Positions 32,083 through 54,508 of a DNA stretch of 64,000 bases are shown here, one piece after another (position 1 is the first letter of the stretch; the number at the start of each line of letters is the position of its first letter). Source of the DNA: Thermoplasmata archaeon (GTDB lineage Archaea > Thermoplasmatota > Thermoplasmata > Halarchaeoplasmatales > Halarchaeoplasmataceae); NCBI GenBank assembly GCA_003551675.1, contig PUNG01000152.1:5377-69376 (forward strand), given 5' to 3'. The translations under genes were made by a program, and so were the position numbers. A model generated the notes under the pieces. That model had not been told where the DNA came from. It saw only the letters and a list, made by a program, of their open reading frames with translations, and did not search any database.

Positions 32083-32180
32083 TGGACCAGCGGGGATTTG
32101 AACCCCGGGCCTCCACCATTCTAGCGGAGATGTTTTCTCCCGTTGCCAAGGTGGCGATCTTCCAACTGATCTACTGGCCC
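32083..32180 (-). tRNA. tRNA-Ala (anticodon GGC) with ~25-nt intron in the anticodon loop; CCA not encoded
   Basis: The reverse complement folds as a tRNA. The acceptor GGGCCAG/CTGGTCC includes a G3:U70 wobble, the Ala identity element. The D-stem is GATC/GATC and the anticodon stem CCACC/GGTGG with loop TTGGCA-intron-. The T-arm is CGGGG TTCAAAT CCCCG and the discriminator is A. Confidence 0.75.
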
Positions 32181-45566: not shown

Positions 45567-47087
45567 CTAATATACCTTTTGAAGTCTTGGATGCTCTTCC
45601 AATATCATACCTTCAACTTTTAAAGGTTTCAAGTGTTTAGCTACCTTCACGGCTTCCTCTAATTCTTTCTTACTCTCAGAATACAATCTGTATAGGCATT
45701 CGTCCTTTTCTACCTTATCTCCCTTTTTCTTTTCCAAGAACAAACCAGCACCTTTACAGTGTGGTCCTCCTGCGGCTCTAACGATCCTGATTATCTCGTC
45801 ATTGTTTATACTGTTCACGTATCCTTCTTCTAATGAGCAGATCTCTTCGGAGTACTTTCCTATCTCGACATCTTCGGAACTTACTTCGGGATCACCACCT
45901 TGCCTGTCTATTATCTGTTTCATCTTGTCCAATGCCTTCCCACTTTTCAGGATCCGCTTAGCTTCTTTTTTTCCATTTCTTGAGCCCCCCAGCTCTAATA
46001 TCATGCCTGCTAGTGTAGTAGATTTTTCTATCAGGCTGGAAGGTACATCCTTACTCTCCAAAGCTCTCAGGGCTTCTTTCGCCTCTATGGCGGGCCCCAC
46101 AGCTCTTCCTACCGGTTGTCCGCCGTAGCTCAGGGCACATCTGGTTTCTATACCTATCTCCTCACCCAGTGAGACAAAATCCCGGGCATATCTTCGTCCT
46201 TCTTCCAGGCTTTTAACTTTGGTGTTTTCCCCTATAGGTATATCCATAACAAGATATTCCGCTCCTGCGGCTTTTTTCTTAGACAGGACCGAAGCCAATA
46301 CCTGGGCATAGGGGTCGATCCTCAAAGGATATTCGGCCTTTATTATCAGATCATCGCTGGGAGCCAGATTTACGGCGCCGCCCCATGCGATGGTTCCTCC
46401 TATATCCTCGGCGATCTCTTTTATCTGCTCCGTTGTCAAAGTAACATCGGCCAAAGTTTCGAATATATCTGCCGTACCTCCTGCGCTAGATATGGCCCTG
46501 GAGCTGGTTTTGGGTATCATCAGACCGGCGGCGGCGATGATGGGAACTATCAATAAAGTGATCTTGTTACCAGGAACGCCACCGATACTGTGGTGATCGA
46601 AGACGGGATGCTTGTCGAATTCTATCTTATCGCCTGTATCGATCATGGCTTGGGTAAGATCTTTTATCTCTCTCTGGTTCATACCCTGGGAATATACGCC
46701 CGAGACGTAGGCTGAAAGCTCTATATCCGATAAACGTCTTTCTACGATATCTTGGATTATCTCGTTGATAGCATGGGTAGATAATTCCTTTCCCTCCAAT
46801 TTTTCCCTTATATGTTCGACTGATTCGGGTCTGCCAGTTTGATTCACGCTCAGTCTTTTGCCTTCCTCCGCATGGATCTCGTCTACGATCTTTTCTACCA
46901 GGCCGATCTCTCCTTCGTCCACTAACGTTCTAGATACTTTTACCACTGCAGTGGTGTTTTTTCCATTTTTGTTAACCCTGACCCTGCTCTGACTTTGTAA
47001 CCCCATCCTTTTCGCATCTTCTTTGTGAAGGATAACAACATGTTCTTCAGATTCGAGATCTATGATCTTGGCAGTTAGTTTGATCAT
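45567..47087 (-). CDS. deoA: AMP phosphorylase (thymidine phosphorylase family)
   Basis: HSIGGVPGNKITLLIVPIIAAAGLMIPKTSSRAISSAGGTADIFE; about 505 aa. The start is assumed at MIKLTAKIIDL. Confidence 0.85.
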   Translation of the reverse strand: MIKLTAKIIDLESEEHVVILHKEDAKRMGLQSQSRVRVNKNGKNTTAVVKVSRTLVDEGEIGLVEKIVDEIHAEEGKRLSVNQTGRPESVEHIREKLEGKELSTHAINEIIQDIVERRLSDIELSAYVSGVYSQGMNQREIKDLTQAMIDTGDKIEFDKHPVFDHHSIGGVPGNKITLLIVPIIAAAGLMIPKTSSRAISSAGGTADIFETLADVTLTTEQIKEIAEDIGGTIAWGGAVNLAPSDDLIIKAEYPLRIDPYAQVLASVLSKKKAAGAEYLVMDIPIGENTKVKSLEEGRRYARDFVSLGEEIGIETRCALSYGGQPVGRAVGPAIEAKEALRALESKDVPSSLIEKSTTLAGMILELGGSRNGKKEAKRILKSGKALDKMKQIIDRQGGDPEVSSEDVEIGKYSEEICSLEEGYVNSINNDEIIRIVRAAGGPHCKGAGLFLEKKKGDKVEKDECLYRLYSESKKELEEAVKVAKHLKPLKVEGMILEEHPRLQKVY

Positions 47088-47091
47088 GGGT

Positions 47092-48321
47092 TCACATCCA
47101 TTTATCAAGGGCCTTTTTTAACTCGGTATGCTCTTTTGCATACTCTCTCAATCCGATCCCCGAACAGACGGCATCTACAGCTTGCGTCAACGCCTTAGCT
47201 CCCGCCATCACTCCGTCCGGGTGACCCGAGACACCTCCTCCTGCTTGTATTTGAACGTCTTTACCGCTCACATCCATGAGTTCTTGTACTAATCCAGGAT
47301 GGAGTCCGCCGCTTGAAACCGGCATCACTTTTTTTAAGTCGTGTTCTTCACCTAGTAATACTTCTTTCGAAAATAGCTCTTCAGATATGTCGGCGTGCAT
47401 CTTTCCGGCCCCGTACGTACCCGTATGCAGAGCGTCTCCTCCTGCCATCCTTACCAGTTTGGCTATGACAGGCATGGAGATCCCGTGGTCTGGATTTTTT
47501 GTTATGGCTCCGTGCATGGCTCTATGTACGTGTATAGGCACATCCACTGAAGGATCTTCAGCCAAAGCCTGTAGACCGGGGAACCCTACGGTCAAAACGT
47601 CCACCATAAGTTGTCTAGCACCGTTTTCCAATGCTATATCCGCCGCATCCAATATCTCATGGGCGTTGGTACTGATGTTGTGGGCATGTATCATCTGGTG
47701 ACCTTCTTCTTGAAGCAGGTCCAGCTTTTCACTCACACAGTTTACCCTATCTTCCAAGGGACAGAAGTCTTGGTCCACCAGGGTCTCGTCGTCTTTAGAG
47801 TTAGTGAGTCCACCCTTTCCCGCCTGGTAAACGTAGTCGGCGAATTCCTTGGGTGGCAGTCCTATCTTCGGTTTCACGATGGTCCCTACTAGAGGTTTTT
47901 TAGGTCTGTTAAGTATCGTTCTCAAACCCTCCAGGCCGAATCGGGGTCCAGGATAGTTTTTTACGAGCTTAGAGGGCATCTCTAGATTCACTAAACGCAC
48001 TCCCTCTAACGAATCTAAACCAAAAAGGTTGCCGGCGATTATACTCAAAATCTGGGGGATACCTCCTATGTCGCCTGAAAAATCTATTACAGGGTAGCCT
48101 ATCCTGACTTTGTCGTTCTTGGCCTCAGTAACTTTTGCTCCGTACCTCTGGAATATATCATCCGATAGGGTGGTAGGATGAGTCCAAGTTCCTGTGGATT
48201 CTTCTTCGGCTATCCTCACTCCCGCGGTTTTTATATCCAAGTCGCTTTTGACGGTATATTCACATATCACATACTCTTCCGGGTCTAACTCTTCATCCAA
48301 TGCTAAGTAATCCATACTCAT
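47092..48321 (-). CDS. rbcL: Ribulose-1,5-bisphosphate carboxylase, form III large subunit
   Basis: RuBisCO large-subunit motifs (GGLDFTKDDE-like TNSKDDETL; VSSGGLHPGLV; GGGVSGHPDG). The ATG at 48319..48321 overlaps the TGA stop of the upstream isomerase gene (ATGA). Confidence 0.9.
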   Translation of the reverse strand: MSMDYLALDEELDPEEYVICEYTVKSDLDIKTAGVRIAEEESTGTWTHPTTLSDDIFQRYGAKVTEAKNDKVRIGYPVIDFSGDIGGIPQILSIIAGNLFGLDSLEGVRLVNLEMPSKLVKNYPGPRFGLEGLRTILNRPKKPLVGTIVKPKIGLPPKEFADYVYQAGKGGLTNSKDDETLVDQDFCPLEDRVNCVSEKLDLLQEEGHQMIHAHNISTNAHEILDAADIALENGARQLMVDVLTVGFPGLQALAEDPSVDVPIHVHRAMHGAITKNPDHGISMPVIAKLVRMAGGDALHTGTYGAGKMHADISEELFSKEVLLGEEHDLKKVMPVSSGGLHPGLVQELMDVSGKDVQIQAGGGVSGHPDGVMAGAKALTQAVDAVCSGIGLREYAKEHTELKKALDKWM

Positions 48322-49241
48322 GATTCCATCTCCTTTATTATTCGGTATGCTCCTTCGGGCGATATGACCCCGTTTTCGGTTATTATACAATCTATATATT
48401 CCGAAGGAGTCGCGTCGAAAACGGGGTTTCTTATCTCAACACCAGGAAATTTTTTGGGATCTACGATCTCAGAGGGGTCCCTTTCCTCGATGGGCACCAG
48501 ATCACCGAATGCAGTTTTTCTCGAAAATTTATAACTCTCCGCACAGACGGTGAGAGGCACCCTCGCTTCGTTTGCACACAATGCCACCTGAGATGTACCG
48601 ATCTTGTTGATAACCGCTCCGTTAGAGGTTATGGTATCCGCTCCCACATAAACTTTATCCACGTCTTTCATGGTATGTCTTACGGCGGAATCCACGATGA
48701 GAGTAACGGGTACTCCTACGTTAGAGAGTTCTTTGATGGTTATGTAGCCCTGTTTTTTGGGACGTGATTCGGTGGCGATCACTTTTATGTTCTTACCTTG
48801 ATCCCACGCGTACTTGATCGCGGCCAATGCTAAGGAACTGTTGCAGTGAGTCAATATCACATCGTCTTCTCCGATCCTTTTACCACCGTATTCTGCTATA
48901 TTCTCCTTCGCTTCCAATGAACGTTGGATAAAATCCGAGCAGTTCTTCTTTATCCTTTTTTTCAGTCGTTCAACGTCTTCTTCTTTTTGCGCTCCTTTCA
49001 TGGCACACACAAGGCAGTTCTCTAGAGACACCGCAGTTGGCCTAGTACTGAGCAATTCAGATCTGCATCTTTCCAATTCCTTTAAAAGATCTTCTTTATC
49101 TTCGTTTTCAAACTCTTCTATGACTTTTTTAAGCGCATGGGCTCCAGCCCTAGCTATCTCAGCGGCCCCTCTTATCTCCATGCATTCTATCTTTTCAGCG
49201 ATCTCTTGTATATCGAGTTTCTCTATATCTTCGCACTCCAT
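48318..49241 (-). CDS. Ribose-1,5-bisphosphate isomerase (eIF2B-like family)
   Basis: eIF2B/MtnA-like fold (VILTHCNSSLALAAI...VGADTITSNGAVINKIGT) and a position directly upstream of rbcL. Confidence 0.8.
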   Translation of the reverse strand: MECEDIEKLDIQEIAEKIECMEIRGAAEIARAGAHALKKVIEEFENEDKEDLLKELERCRSELLSTRPTAVSLENCLVCAMKGAQKEEDVERLKKRIKKNCSDFIQRSLEAKENIAEYGGKRIGEDDVILTHCNSSLALAAIKYAWDQGKNIKVIATESRPKKQGYITIKELSNVGVPVTLIVDSAVRHTMKDVDKVYVGADTITSNGAVINKIGTSQVALCANEARVPLTVCAESYKFSRKTAFGDLVPIEERDPSEIVDPKKFPGVEIRNPVFDATPSEYIDCIITENGVISPEGAYRIIKEMES

Positions 49242-51989: not shown

Positions 51990-53255
51990 ATGACTCTCAT
52001 AGAAAGATGTGAAAAAAGCGTACCTGAACAGGTCGTTAAAGCGGTGGAGAACGAACCCATAGACTCTAAGAGATTGGCTCGTCTGATAAAAAACGGTCGA
52101 GCGGTCATACCCTACAATCCTATCCACGGTCCTGAACCGATCCCGATCGGCAAAGATATGAAAGTGAAGATAAACGTTAATCTTGGCACCTCTAGAGACC
52201 ATAAGGATGAGGACCTAGAACTGAAAAAATTAAAGGTGGCGGAAGAATACGGGAGCCACGCGGTCATGGATTTAAGCACAGGTGGAGATATCGACAGGGT
52301 GAGAAGGAAAGTGATAGATAACACCGATCTACCTGTGGGTACCGTTCCAATATACCAATGCGGCCTTACCAAGGCGAGAGAGTCATCCGTAGTGGATATG
52401 AATTCTGATGAGATGTTCAACAGTGTGAGGAAGCACGCCAGAGACGGTGTTGACTTTGTAACGGTACATTGTGGCGTCACGAAAAAAGCTATCGACAGTT
52501 TGAAGGAATGTGGAAGATTAACAGACATAGTGAGCAGAGGTGGATCCTTTTTAGCGGCGTGGATATTACACAATCAAGAGGAAAATCCACTCTACCAGGA
52601 ATTCGATTACCTTTTGGAGATCGCTAGAGAATACGACCTAACTTTGAGTTTAGGCGACGGGTTGAGACCTGGTTCCATAGCAGATGCTACTGATAGACCG
52701 CAGATACAAGAATTGATCACACTCGGTGAACTGGTAAAAAGGTCGAGAGAGAAAAAAGTACAGGCCATGGTCGAAGGACCGGGTCACGTGCCCCTTGATC
52801 AGATAAGTGCTAACGTTAAGATACAAAAGGAGATATGTGACGGAGCACCCTTTTACGTGCTTGGTCCTCTTGTTACCGATTTCGCACCGGGCTATGATCA
52901 TATCTCCGGAGCTATAGGAGGCGCGTTGGCTGCATATCATGGTGCAGATTTTCTTTGTTATGTAACTCCTGCAGAGCACCTGGGTCTTCCCGACGTCGAA
53001 GACGTAAAAGAAGGCGTCATAGCCTCTAGGATAGCTGCCCACGCCGCCGATATAACCAAAGGTATAGACGTCGATATAGATGATGACCTATCAAAGGCGA
53101 GAAAAGAGCTCAACTGGGAAAAGATGTTCGAAAAAGTGGTGGATCCTAAAAAAGCTAAAAAGATGAGAAAAGAAAAGAACAGTGCGGACGAGGATGTATG
53201 CTCCATGTGCGGAGACGTCTGTGCCATAAAGATGGTTGAAGATCAATTTCGGTAA
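51990..53255 (+). CDS. thiC: Phosphomethylpyrimidine synthase ThiC
   Basis: IVSRGGSFLAAWI and the C-terminal CSMCGDVCAIK radical-SAM-like cluster motif. Confidence 0.85.
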   Translation: MTLIERCEKSVPEQVVKAVENEPIDSKRLARLIKNGRAVIPYNPIHGPEPIPIGKDMKVKINVNLGTSRDHKDEDLELKKLKVAEEYGSHAVMDLSTGGDIDRVRRKVIDNTDLPVGTVPIYQCGLTKARESSVVDMNSDEMFNSVRKHARDGVDFVTVHCGVTKKAIDSLKECGRLTDIVSRGGSFLAAWILHNQEENPLYQEFDYLLEIAREYDLTLSLGDGLRPGSIADATDRPQIQELITLGELVKRSREKKVQAMVEGPGHVPLDQISANVKIQKEICDGAPFYVLGPLVTDFAPGYDHISGAIGGALAAYHGADFLCYVTPAEHLGLPDVEDVKEGVIASRIAAHAADITKGIDVDIDDDLSKARKELNWEKMFEKVVDPKKAKKMRKEKNSADEDVCSMCGDVCAIKMVEDQFR

Positions 53256-53328
53256 TTTTAAAAGTGAGTAGCCATTTCTTCTGGACCTCGAGGGCCATAA
53301 AAACACTACAACACGGCCCCTTCTTCAT

Positions 53329-53479
53329 GCCGAGGTAGCTAAGCCTGGACCAAGGCGCCGGCCTTGAGAGCCGCCGATCAGAGGAAAGTCTTCACGGGCT
53401 TTCCTCGAGCCGGGATTCCCGGCGATCAAGCAAGCCGGTGGCGCGCTGCGCCTCAGGAGTTCGAATCTCCTCCTCGGCG
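53329..53479 (+). tRNA. tRNA-Ser (anticodon UGA), type II, with 64-nt intron at canonical 37/38 position
   Basis: The acceptor GCCGAGG/CCTCGGC is a perfect 7-bp helix and the discriminator is G. The D-arm is GCU...GGC and the anticodon stem CCGGC/GCCGG with loop CUUGAG-intron-A. A 16-nt variable-arm hairpin reads UGGCGCGCUGCGCCUC. The T-arm is AGGAG UUCGAAU CUCCU. The intron spans 53369..53432 and has its own hairpins. Confidence 0.7.
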
Positions 53480-53620
53480 TTCGTTCCTATGTCACTCACG
53501 CCTTCAGATGAGATTCGAAAACTGTTCGGAATGCCTCTGGCATTCCAAACGCTCACAATTCGCAGGAAACCGAAGGTTTCTGAATAAGAATAGGATGAAA
53601 TCCTACGAAATCAAAGATTT

Positions 53621-53641
53621 GTTCGTCTCCTCCTCGGCGTT
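53621..53641 (+). repeat. Direct repeat of tRNA-Ser 3' end (GTTCG..TCTCCTCCTCGGCGTT), possible attR/integration scar
   Basis: An exact 16-mer TCTCCTCCTCGGCGTT occurs at 53466..53481 (tRNA T-stem/acceptor 3' strand) and again at 53626..53641. The second copy is preceded by GTTCG, a T-loop fragment. Confidence 0.5.
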
Positions 53642-53773
53642 TTCATTAACTTTCGAGCGAAGCGAAAAATGAAAAGACAAAAAAATATTCCATTTCCCTA
53701 TTCCACCAAGAAAAGTTAAATCAAAGTAGTATTTCATCTTATGTCATAGGTCCAATTATCTATTTAAAGAAGT

Positions 53774-54250
53774 GTGATTAATTTGAAGATGGAAAAACCG
53801 ACGGACATATACAAGGTTACAGGAAGGATCAGAGTGATCTTCAACTATATTATAATAAACTTGATCTGTTCTCCTCTTCCGCCTGGAAGGCTAAAAAACT
53901 GGTTTCTGAGGAGAACTGGTATGAAAGTTGGTAAGGACGCGTGGGTGAATCCGCAGTGCGTTTTCGACCCGTTAAATCCTGAAATGATCACCATAGATGA
54001 TGGGGCTTTTCTAGGTTGGGGATGCAGACTGATGGCCCACGTGATAGTCCCCAGCGAAAAAGGTGGTTATGATTATAAAGATGGCGAAGTGGTGATCAAA
54101 TCAAAAGCCTTCGTCGGTGGATTCTCTACGGTCCTACCGGATACGATAGTGGAAGGTATGCTTTTCAATAATTCACTGGTTTGTGAGGATATACCAAAAG
54201 GGGAAAGGTGGGGAGGAGTTCCTGCAAAAAAGATCAGTAACAACGATTGA
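53774..54250 (+). CDS. Hexapeptide-repeat acetyltransferase (left-handed beta-helix)
   Basis: Hexapeptide-like repeats (IDDGAFLGWGCRLMAHVIV...VIKSKAFVGGFSTVLPDTIV); 158 aa. Confidence 0.65.
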   Translation: MINLKMEKPTDIYKVTGRIRVIFNYIIINLICSPLPPGRLKNWFLRRTGMKVGKDAWVNPQCVFDPLNPEMITIDDGAFLGWGCRLMAHVIVPSEKGGYDYKDGEVVIKSKAFVGGFSTVLPDTIVEGMLFNNSLVCEDIPKGERWGGVPAKKISNND

Positions 54251-54508
54251 TCCAAATTGATGACAATCCATGAAAAACCTTTTTCTGTTTTTGCCCTTAT
54301 ACAAAAAATACTTTTAGCGTATGCTCTAGTAAAAGAATGCGTCTAAATCGCTCTGTAGAAACTAACTTTGCCCCTTGATAAAATTTTCATAGCAATCAGA
54401 AGATACAATTTTGTTTAAGCAAGGTATTAGGATGATATTCGGGATGTTGAAAGACGAATTAGAGCTCGAAAGAAAAGTGATTTAAATGATCGGTTCTATC
54501 CTTAAAGT

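Follow-up and report, generated by a model that had tools for sequence, protein, structure and literature searches.

The window, the whole 64,000-nt stretch of DNA analyzed here, comes from a MAG of soda-lake sediment that represents an uncultured, haloalkaliphilic member of the Thermoplasmata. The ThiC protein encoded at 51990-53255 is 100% identical to that in MAG GCA_019594035.1 and in Kulunda soda-lake metagenomes, and the nearest other ThiC relatives are Thermoplasmata MAGs with identities of at most 80%. A tRNA-Ser(UGA) gene starts 73 nt downstream of thiC (Table 1), and the synteny of thiC with the intron-containing tRNA-Ser(UGA) gene is kept in three relatives (L002, L008 and L009). 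The Rfam alignment of the gene contains a 66-nt insertion in the anticodon loop, and the anticodon TGA occupies 53365-53367. Folding of the precursor gives a cloverleaf in which the anticodon/intron helix is extended (z = -4.3), and the long variable arm is that of a class II tRNA. The long variable arm and the precursor fold together identify the gene as an intron-containing tRNA-Ser(UGA). ARAGORN, run in its bacterial/linear setting, reported no tRNA in the window; this result was discarded because both Rfam and folding show intron-containing tRNAs. A second tRNA gene of the window (32083-32180, reverse strand), which carries a 27-nt intron in the anticodon loop, is likewise found by Rfam and not by ARAGORN. 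Elsewhere in the window, the reverse strand of 45567-49241 encodes an AMP phosphorylase-like protein (Glycos_transf_3/PYNP_C), a RuBisCO large subunit and an IF-2B-like protein of the ribose-1,5-bisphosphate isomerase type, a set of genes that corresponds to the AMP/nucleoside salvage pathway of archaea; this cluster is conserved in relatives.

The 3' end of the tRNA-Ser(UGA) gene is present twice in the same orientation. The second copy lacks the tRNA body and consists of GTTCG (53621-53625) followed by an exact TCTCCTCCTCGGCGTT (53626-53641), so that 21 of the 23 bases of GTTCGAATCTCCTCCTCGGCGTT are repeated and the AA of the T loop is missing. Only these two exact matches to TCTCCTCCTCGGCGTT exist within the 64 kb, and a search at up to three mismatches adds only two unrelated sites, both with three mismatches, at 12.8 and 23.9 kb. 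The number of matches expected at this tolerance is 0.58, and four matches were reached in none of 100 shuffles. The identical structure occurs in four other assemblies (contigs L081, L084, L085, L086 and L210). Because it is present in independent assemblies, the repeat structure is not an assembly artefact. The original prediction had described a duplicated tRNA 3' end of 16 nt plus GTTCG, a 144-bp separation, an 8-bp hairpin between the copies and a window free of integrase genes, and each of these descriptions holds. The duplication is exact and non-random in shuffles; the separation between the exact 16-nt copies is precisely 144 nt (53482-53625), which contain neither a gene nor an ORF; the 8-bp hairpin, GGAATGCC-TCT-GGCATTCC, is found at 53528-53546; and a tblastn search with five XerA-like integrases detects no homologue in the window.

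Table 1. Features of the tRNA-Ser(UGA) locus and related attachment sites, in window coordinates
Feature	Position	Strand	Basis or remark
tRNA-Ser(UGA), intact attL-side gene	53329-53479	+	Rfam RF00005, 37.5 bits against a gathering score of 29
tRNA-Ser(UGA) intron, ~64 nt	~53369-53432	+	canonical 37/38 position
24-nt core GGAGTTCGAATCTCCTCCTCGGCG (T arm and 3' acceptor strand)	53456-53479	+	common to type A attL and attR
First exact 16-nt copy, TCTCCTCCTCGGCGTT (tRNA end and TT)	53466-53481	+
Type B left arm	53480-53511	+	100% identical to the arm behind tRNA-Ser(CGA) in L138
Conserved block GATTCGAAAACTG	53512-53524	+	all 12 instances with at most 1 mismatch; unique in the window
Hairpin H1, 12-bp stem with one C.A mismatch	53524-53550	+
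Conserved block CGCTCACAA	53550-53558	+
Two extra small hairpins, GGAAACCGAAGGTTTC (53565-53580) and TAGGATGAAATCCTA (53591-53605)	53565-53605	+
Hairpin H2 (AAATCAAAGATTT), module right arm	53608-53620	+
Second, partial copy, GTTCG^TCTCCTCCTCGGCGTT, attR-like, without tRNA body	53621-53641	+	T-loop AA absent (^)
Nested hairpin A (TTTTCATTAAC TTTCG AGCGAAG CGAAA AATGAAAA)	53640-53675	+	alignment to relatives, fold
Acetyltransferase-like cassette, ~550 bp	53708-54251	+	ORF 53774/53789-54250; sole variable neighbour
Type A attR loci: L105, L106, L115, L146, L154, L170, L175, L189, L190, L198

What does the second copy of the tRNA end represent? In L002 and L008, whose ThiC proteins are 78-80% identical to that of the window, the tRNA end is directly followed by a nested hairpin, CTTTTTACATTTTCT-GAGYGAYAGCGA-AGAARAT..., and relatives with such a direct junction between the tRNA and the hairpin flank have ThiC identities of 74-80%. 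The window sequence after the second copy (53642-53690) aligns with this flank of L002 and L008 and also with the flanks of L138 and L120 that are located behind the second copy there. What follows the first copy bears no relation to the tRNA flank of the relatives. An empty site is therefore available in L002 and L008, where the uninterrupted tRNA end carries the flank that matches the sequence beyond the distal repeat. Judged from this alignment, hairpin A is the displaced native flank of the tRNA, and the second copy together with its flank looks like the original tRNA end, pushed downstream by an insert of ~160 bp. This insert looks as if it had brought a new tRNA end along, with the geometry of attL and attR, and the duplicated tRNA 3' end is best read from its sequence context as an attL/attR-type footprint. 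The protein database contains no ThiC relative between 80% and 99% identity and offers no closer empty site; among close relatives, there is no clean pair of empty and filled sites, with ThiC identity jumping from 99% to 80%.

The tRNA end that is duplicated in the window serves as an integration target in the same archaeal group. A metagenome scan with the 21-nt tRNA end retrieved at least 118 stretches, and the fetched loci total ~1.9 Mb. One of them, contig L148, originates from the same metagenome (3300027784) as the window-type contig L084. The first 99 nt of L148 are identical to window positions 53381-53479, including intron sequence specific to this tRNA. Exactly after 53479, L148 diverges into CTA-ATTTACGGGTAAAT (sequence CTAATTTACGGGTAAAT...), and the occupied junction consists of the tRNA end followed by CTAATTTACGGG. 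Beyond this junction, L148 encodes a 174-aa protein that is RHH-like by eye, then a 312-aa tyrosine integrase and then a DnaG-like primase. The integrase gene is intact, lies 0.57 kb from attL and encodes a Pfam Phage_integrase domain (1.3e-27) and a SAM-like N-terminal domain. Neither the 144 bp between the repeats nor the rest of the window contains a XerA-like integrase gene; an integrase was found only in this occupied variant.

The element in L148, here called type A, is also recognized at other loci. Three left ends (attL) were recovered, in L148, in L114 (the same contig as L218) and in L216, which is binned with the MAG of the relative L008; those of L114 and L216 sit on tRNA-Ser(CGA). 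Right ends were recovered on at least ten contigs, in which ATTTACGGGyAAAT-TGGA precedes the 24-nt core without a tRNA body and with host flank downstream. The type A right end reads ...AAATTGGA-core, and the palindrome ATTTACGGGTAAAT is present on both sides of the core. A homologue of hairpin A follows the type A attR in L105, L106 and L146. The type A integrase has 572 homologues at E <= 1e-20 and is ~50-54% identical to archaeal chromosomal XerA/XerD-like proteins; related integrases adjoin tRNA-Ser(CGA) in L206 and tRNA-Leu in L208. On the evidence of these junctions, the T arm and acceptor core of tRNA-Ser is an active attB for type A integrase elements, and the sequences of L148 and L084 indicate that tRNA-Ser(UGA) is present in occupied and unoccupied forms in one sample. 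Viral contigs gave no match to the 21-nt tRNA end and, when queried with the AA-less copy, a single chance match inside an ORF of a high-GC phage.

Several further loci illustrate the diversity of integrase-associated elements at tRNA genes. At the tRNA-Ser(CGA) of L206 (9337-20000), the element has a related integrase (72% identity) and carries genes for a HerA/FtsK-like ATPase, a SIR2-domain protein, a TIR-domain protein and a DDE transposase, possibly as defence cargo; the fetched stretch stops short of its right end. In L208 (5590-5840), the integrase gene lies beside tRNA-Leu(GAG), with a partial copy of the tRNA 5' end (GCGAGGGTAGCC) ~75 nt upstream of the gene. L189 (1601-3100) has a second, degenerate type A right end (TTTCACGGGCAAATTGGCGTCAGAATCTACTCCTCGGCA) 1.47 kb downstream of the intact one, a further sign of serial insertions at tRNA-Ser. 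In L185, a type A element is reduced to a scar of ~21 nt, core-CTA-ATTTACGtaCAAAT-TGGA-GTTCcAAT, and gene-less mini-scars therefore do form at the tRNA-Ser site. Its sequence is what recombination of the two flanking palindromes with each other would be expected to yield.

The use of this site also affects genome assembly. In five assemblies, contigs terminate at the tRNA 3' end or within it, and the recovered contigs do not include the distal type A junction of this strain, in which attR would be joined to the spacer. The breaks are explained by the polymorphism of occupied and unoccupied sites and by repeats that are common to tRNA-Ser loci. Many metagenome and MAG contigs from different species stop precisely at the final base of tRNA-Ser or of the 24-nt core (the ends of L009 and L001, as well as L094, L101, L111, L176, L115 and L170), and the tRNA-Ser 3' end is a general assembly breakpoint in this archaeal group.

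The spacer between the two copies has a composition of its own, which recurs in a family of modules designated type B. Their common layout consists of a left arm of ~30 nt, GATTCGAAAACTG, hairpin H1, CGCTCACAA, optional extra hairpins, hairpin H2 and GTTCG-TCTCCTCCTCGGCG. In the window, the spacer begins with TTCGTTCC directly 3' of the core, the 8-bp hairpin sits inside the longer stem of H1, and the right end of the module is formed by H2 and then GTTCGTCTCC. The long form with two extra hairpins is common to the window and L181, and H2 is replaced in other instances by the equivalents AAACCGTAGGTTT, AAGACTTCGTCTT or AATCAGAGATTT. At least 12 instances were identified (the window, L138, L088, L193, L089, L093, L120, L164, L181, L185, L140 and L137), of which the L140 instance is cut by the contig end and the L137 instance has its second copy deleted. 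The modules contain no gene and span 97-160 bp between directly adjacent copies. They are found behind both the intron-containing tRNA-Ser(UGA) and tRNA-Ser(CGA) genes; some abut the tRNA, and others come after one to three other hairpin units. In the ~1.9 Mb of fetched loci, every occurrence of the module and hairpin motifs lies no farther than 1.2 kb from a tRNA-Ser core, and the window contains them nowhere else. The AA-less second copy is present in all 11 instances that retain or reach a second copy. In H1, three of nine consensus pairs are changed on both sides across the family with pairing kept. The window and L138 share 69 identical nt, comprising the core and the left arm, and their tRNA bodies differ. 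Local alignments of the spacer to the type A arms are no better than those of shuffled sequences, and an origin of the spacer as a decayed type A element was rejected on this result.

In addition to type B modules, tandem units of ~66 nt are located behind tRNA-Ser genes. Each unit comprises a long nested hairpin with the loop GAGCGnnAGCGAA, a short hairpin and TTGGCG. The units may be older att scars, native flank or of some other origin. Up to five units stand in a row, and they are found only near tRNA-Ser genes (window 53640-53675; L093 143-500; L138 3549-3900; L088; L131; L202/L008 9514-9680). Near-identical downstream sequences occur behind UGA and CGA tRNA bodies in the pairs window/L138, L093/L120, L089/L185, L137/L140, L095/L122 and L097/L108. 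Such sharing of flanks suggests gene conversion between the two tRNA-Ser loci, their exchange driven by an integrase, or the presence of the module twice in one genome.

The original prediction had placed a block of accessory genes next to the repeat and had considered that the pair might be part of a larger element with a far att copy. GC content is flat across 53-58 kb. In L002/L095 (80% ThiC identity), the order of the CMD, MFS and LarA-like genes behind the tRNA is conserved, and one 997-aa gene stands in place of the acetyltransferase gene. Given this synteny and the flat GC content, CMD, MFS and LarA are chromosomal neighbours rather than an island. A larger element bounded by a far repeat was rejected on the repeat search across the window, the flat GC content and the synteny with L002/L095, and the region from 54251 to 54508, after the acetyltransferase gene, contains no detectable att remnant. 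Among the downstream neighbours, variability is confined to the acetyltransferase-like cassette. Including its upstream 80 nt, the cassette is 90% identical at the nucleotide level to a segment of L122 (reverse strand, about 569-1117), in which it lies directly behind tRNA-Ser(CGA); the two sequences are homologous as far as the stop codon and have different genes after it. The ORF has no Pfam match. The gene looks like a cassette tied to tRNA-Ser flanks and may be captured cargo.

How did the gene-less spacer arise? The locus is probably an att-flanked, decayed remnant of an integrase-mediated insertion at the 3' end of tRNA-Ser(UGA), and we infer that the module derives from an integrase element. 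According to this proposal, a tyrosine recombinase would have integrated an element into the 3' end of tRNA-Ser(UGA). The attP of the element would have consisted of the H2 hairpin, GTTCG-TCTCCTCCTCGGCG as an imperfect tRNA end, and the left arm, and the crossover would have occurred somewhere within TCTCCTCCTCGGCG. The tRNA would have retained a functional 3' end, with the left arm of the element now behind it, and the original tRNA end with its native hairpin flank would have been pushed downstream and joined to the right arm. A crossover in TCTCCTCCTCGGCG would leave a second copy whose left part is of the element type (TTTGTTCG, without AA) and whose right part is of the host type. The AA-less junction shared by the modules would then be explained if each second copy combined a left part derived from a single kind of attP with a right part of host origin. 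Later, only the two arms would have been left as a 144-bp, gene-less, att-flanked remnant resembling a CIME of very small size. Lacking the AA, the distal site is probably a poor substrate, which would lock the remnant in place. The proximal site in the tRNA is still in use, with a different element, type A, inserted exactly after 53479 in part of the population.

This proposal preserves the core of the earlier interpretation and changes its history. The reading of the duplication as an att scar stands in that the footprint is of the attL/attR type and its core is used by integrase elements; no island accompanies it, and simple loss of an element is insufficient. A remnant left by a lost element is favoured, but loss alone is too simple an account because the spacer belongs to a recurring module family with maintained hairpins. 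Twelve short modules with a conserved architecture and compensatory changes in H1 are not expected from independent random deletions. The matches listed and the viral-contig scans include no full-length type B element with these arms and an integrase, and no parent from which the module could have decayed is seen in the fetched loci; L185 exemplifies such decay for type A. The same spacer in relatives, with neither variation nor an element, had been named as an observation that would speak against the att reading. This holds only for strain-level relatives (99-100% ThiC), which alone have an invariant spacer; distant relatives have no spacer, and an element is found at the site. The module family can be read as an old scar spread by descent and gene conversion, as a remnant moved in cis with full elements by CIME-type accretion or as a module that is itself mobilized.

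The last of these readings is unlikely, although it is the most probable of the alternatives. The 97-160-bp module would itself be mobile, either as a gene-less miniature integrative element or as a passenger of accretion, with integrases supplied in trans. The 12 instances with one architecture and one AA-less right end would fit this reading, as would their occurrence behind both tRNA-Ser isoacceptor genes at differing positions in the downstream arrays, the sequence identity of the window and L138 despite different tRNA bodies, the compensatory changes that maintain the hairpins and a long parent not seen in the fetched loci. However, a circle of ~100-160 bp is a poor recombination substrate, neither a circular junction nor a pair of empty and filled sites was observed in the loci examined, and the missing AA falls in the T loop. 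Moreover, gene conversion between tRNA-Ser flanks or vertical descent could account for this distribution. A wider version of the idea is unlikely as well: the modules and the ~66-nt units would together be miniature site-specific integrative units, which XerA-like integrases would insert, copy or exchange in trans at the tRNA-Ser 3' core, and the tRNA-Ser flanks would be accretion arrays shuffled between loci. Such shuffling might extend to an integrase-driven exchange of the UGA and CGA genes, of the kind reported for tRNA genes of Thermococcales.

An origin of the repeat without any integrase has only a small probability; the mechanism would be slippage, a local duplication or gene conversion involving the flanks of paralogous tRNA-Ser genes, in a region that is no more than a repeat-prone array. 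The ~66-nt tandem units downstream, some of which are nearly identical to their neighbours (L093), are compatible with such a process, and the same arrays stand behind both tRNA-Ser genes. An intragenomic repeat is suggested by L210 and L086, contigs of a single MAG whose sequences overlap over 120 nt (window 53457-53576). Nevertheless, the duplication covers the tRNA end and leaves out the spacer, so it is not a tandem one. The junction between the second copy and the displaced native flank is exactly that of an attR, and the core is demonstrably used by integrase elements.

Could the spacer instead have a function of its own, in cis or as a small RNA, for example as a tRNA 3' trailer, as a terminator or in regulating the acetyltransferase gene, with the second copy serving a structural role? 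Its five local hairpins fold better than shuffled sequences (z = -2.5), H1 has undergone compensatory changes, and the orientation relative to the tRNA is constant. These properties lend the idea little probability when set against the remaining data: an Rfam search of 53250-53800 at E values up to 10 detects, apart from noise, only the tRNA; a terminator-like site is not found; and mismatches in the stems of the module hairpins comprise seven G.T and five A.C, with no bias toward the RNA strand. Selection on the hairpins at the RNA level was rejected on the similar frequencies of G.T and A.C, the lack of an Rfam family and the lack of a terminator-like site. A scan for promoter-like sites near the spacer found none, and being of the bacterial type, it is uninformative for this archaeal host. 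In addition, the module is missing at the orthologous tRNA-Ser(UGA) loci of relatives and is thus dispensable.

A target-site duplication generated by a transposon-type element, namely a casposon, an IS200/IS605-derived PATE or another MITE, is very improbable: casposons produce target-site duplications of ~14-16 bp, some of them at tRNA 3' ends, and the subterminal hairpins of the module resemble IS200/IS605 ends, but the insert ends, CGTTCCTATG... and ...GATTTGTTCG, do not form inverted repeats (only 4 of 10 positions agree between CGTTCCTATG and CGAACAAATC, the right end in reverse complement), the similarity extends with a gap beyond the exact repeat as is typical of att sites, there are no copies away from tRNA-Ser in the fetched loci and none of the motifs recurs in the 64-kb window, and no cas1, tnpA or tnpB adjoins any instance in a non-exhaustive search. 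Without terminal inverted repeats and dispersed copies, the locus does not bear the footprint of a casposon or MITE. An integron attC-like site was rejected by inspection, given that the order 5'-GTT...AAC-3' in H1 is opposite to the R''...R' arrangement.

The attL/attR-flanked remnant thus remains the preferred reading, and the locus is informative beyond its own history. The 24-nt tRNA-Ser core gives a concrete attB for mobile elements of uncultured haloalkaliphilic Thermoplasmata, together with a first view of one element family that combines a XerA-like integrase, a candidate RHH-like regulator and a primase and whose relatives carry SIR2/TIR genes. Occupied and unoccupied alleles are seen in one natural population. 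In practical terms, the site accounts for assembly breaks at tRNA-Ser, and the genes downstream should not be taken for an island.

Comparison with known systems indicates that the locus most likely belongs to a known class, as a CIME-like remnant that is flanked by att sites, has decayed and lies at a hot spot of active integration. Archaeal mobile genetic elements typically have partial tRNA genes as their attR sites, and PYG1 of Pyrococcus yayanosii is integrated between a partial and a complete tRNA-Gln (PMC9897764). Like the PYG1-type elements, the locus in the window combines a complete tRNA with a downstream repeat of its 3' part in the same orientation, and both would involve integration by a tyrosine recombinase with restoration of the tRNA 3' end by the element (PMC9897764). 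However, the copies enclose 144 bp and no gene here and 9-23 kb in the PYG1-type examples, and the repeat comprises 16 exact nucleotides (21 of 23 with a gap, the distal copy having a 2-nt deletion) compared with 44 bp for PYG1 (PMC9897764). Archaeal integrated elements mostly use XerC/D-type integrases, target tRNA genes and form arrays (PMC6563490). Type A resembles those of Thaumarchaeota in its intact XerC/D-like integrase gene near one end and its tRNA targets, and the short att sites of the latter (median 17 bp) and their tandem arrays have counterparts here (PMC6563490). The host, a haloalkaliphilic Thermoplasmata archaeon, and the palindrome on both sides of the core distinguish type A from these elements (PMC6563490). 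The SSV-type 'suicidal' integrases of Thermococcales and Sulfolobales also use tRNA genes as attB, and their activity is linked to genome rearrangement between tRNA genes that share 3' sequences (PMC7253208, PMC5495485). Their attP lies inside the integrase gene, which is split on integration (PMC7253208, PMC5495485); the integrase gene of type A is intact, and type A is therefore not of the SSV type.

A further parallel is provided by CIMEs, which are known from Streptococcus and other bacteria as decayed att-flanked remnants that act as landing pads and accrete in tandem at tRNA 3' ends (PMC5704250). The gene-less 144-bp spacer shares their defining organization, flanked by attL and attR without genes for recombination or transfer, and as with CIMEs (PMC5704250), a new element would integrate at one att site and remnants would pile up at one tRNA gene; L148 shows insertion at the proximal site. 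CIMEs are bacterial, kilobase-sized and mobilized in cis as shown experimentally, whereas the remnant described here is archaeal, measures 0.1-0.16 kb and is known from sequence (PMC5704250). The unusual aspects of the locus are its size of 0.14 kb, the recurrent module family and the stacking of hairpin units behind tRNA-Ser genes. The miniature modules with maintained hairpins are the sole part beyond textbook expectation, and if they prove mobile, they would be the archaeal equivalent of CIMEs, on a much smaller scale.
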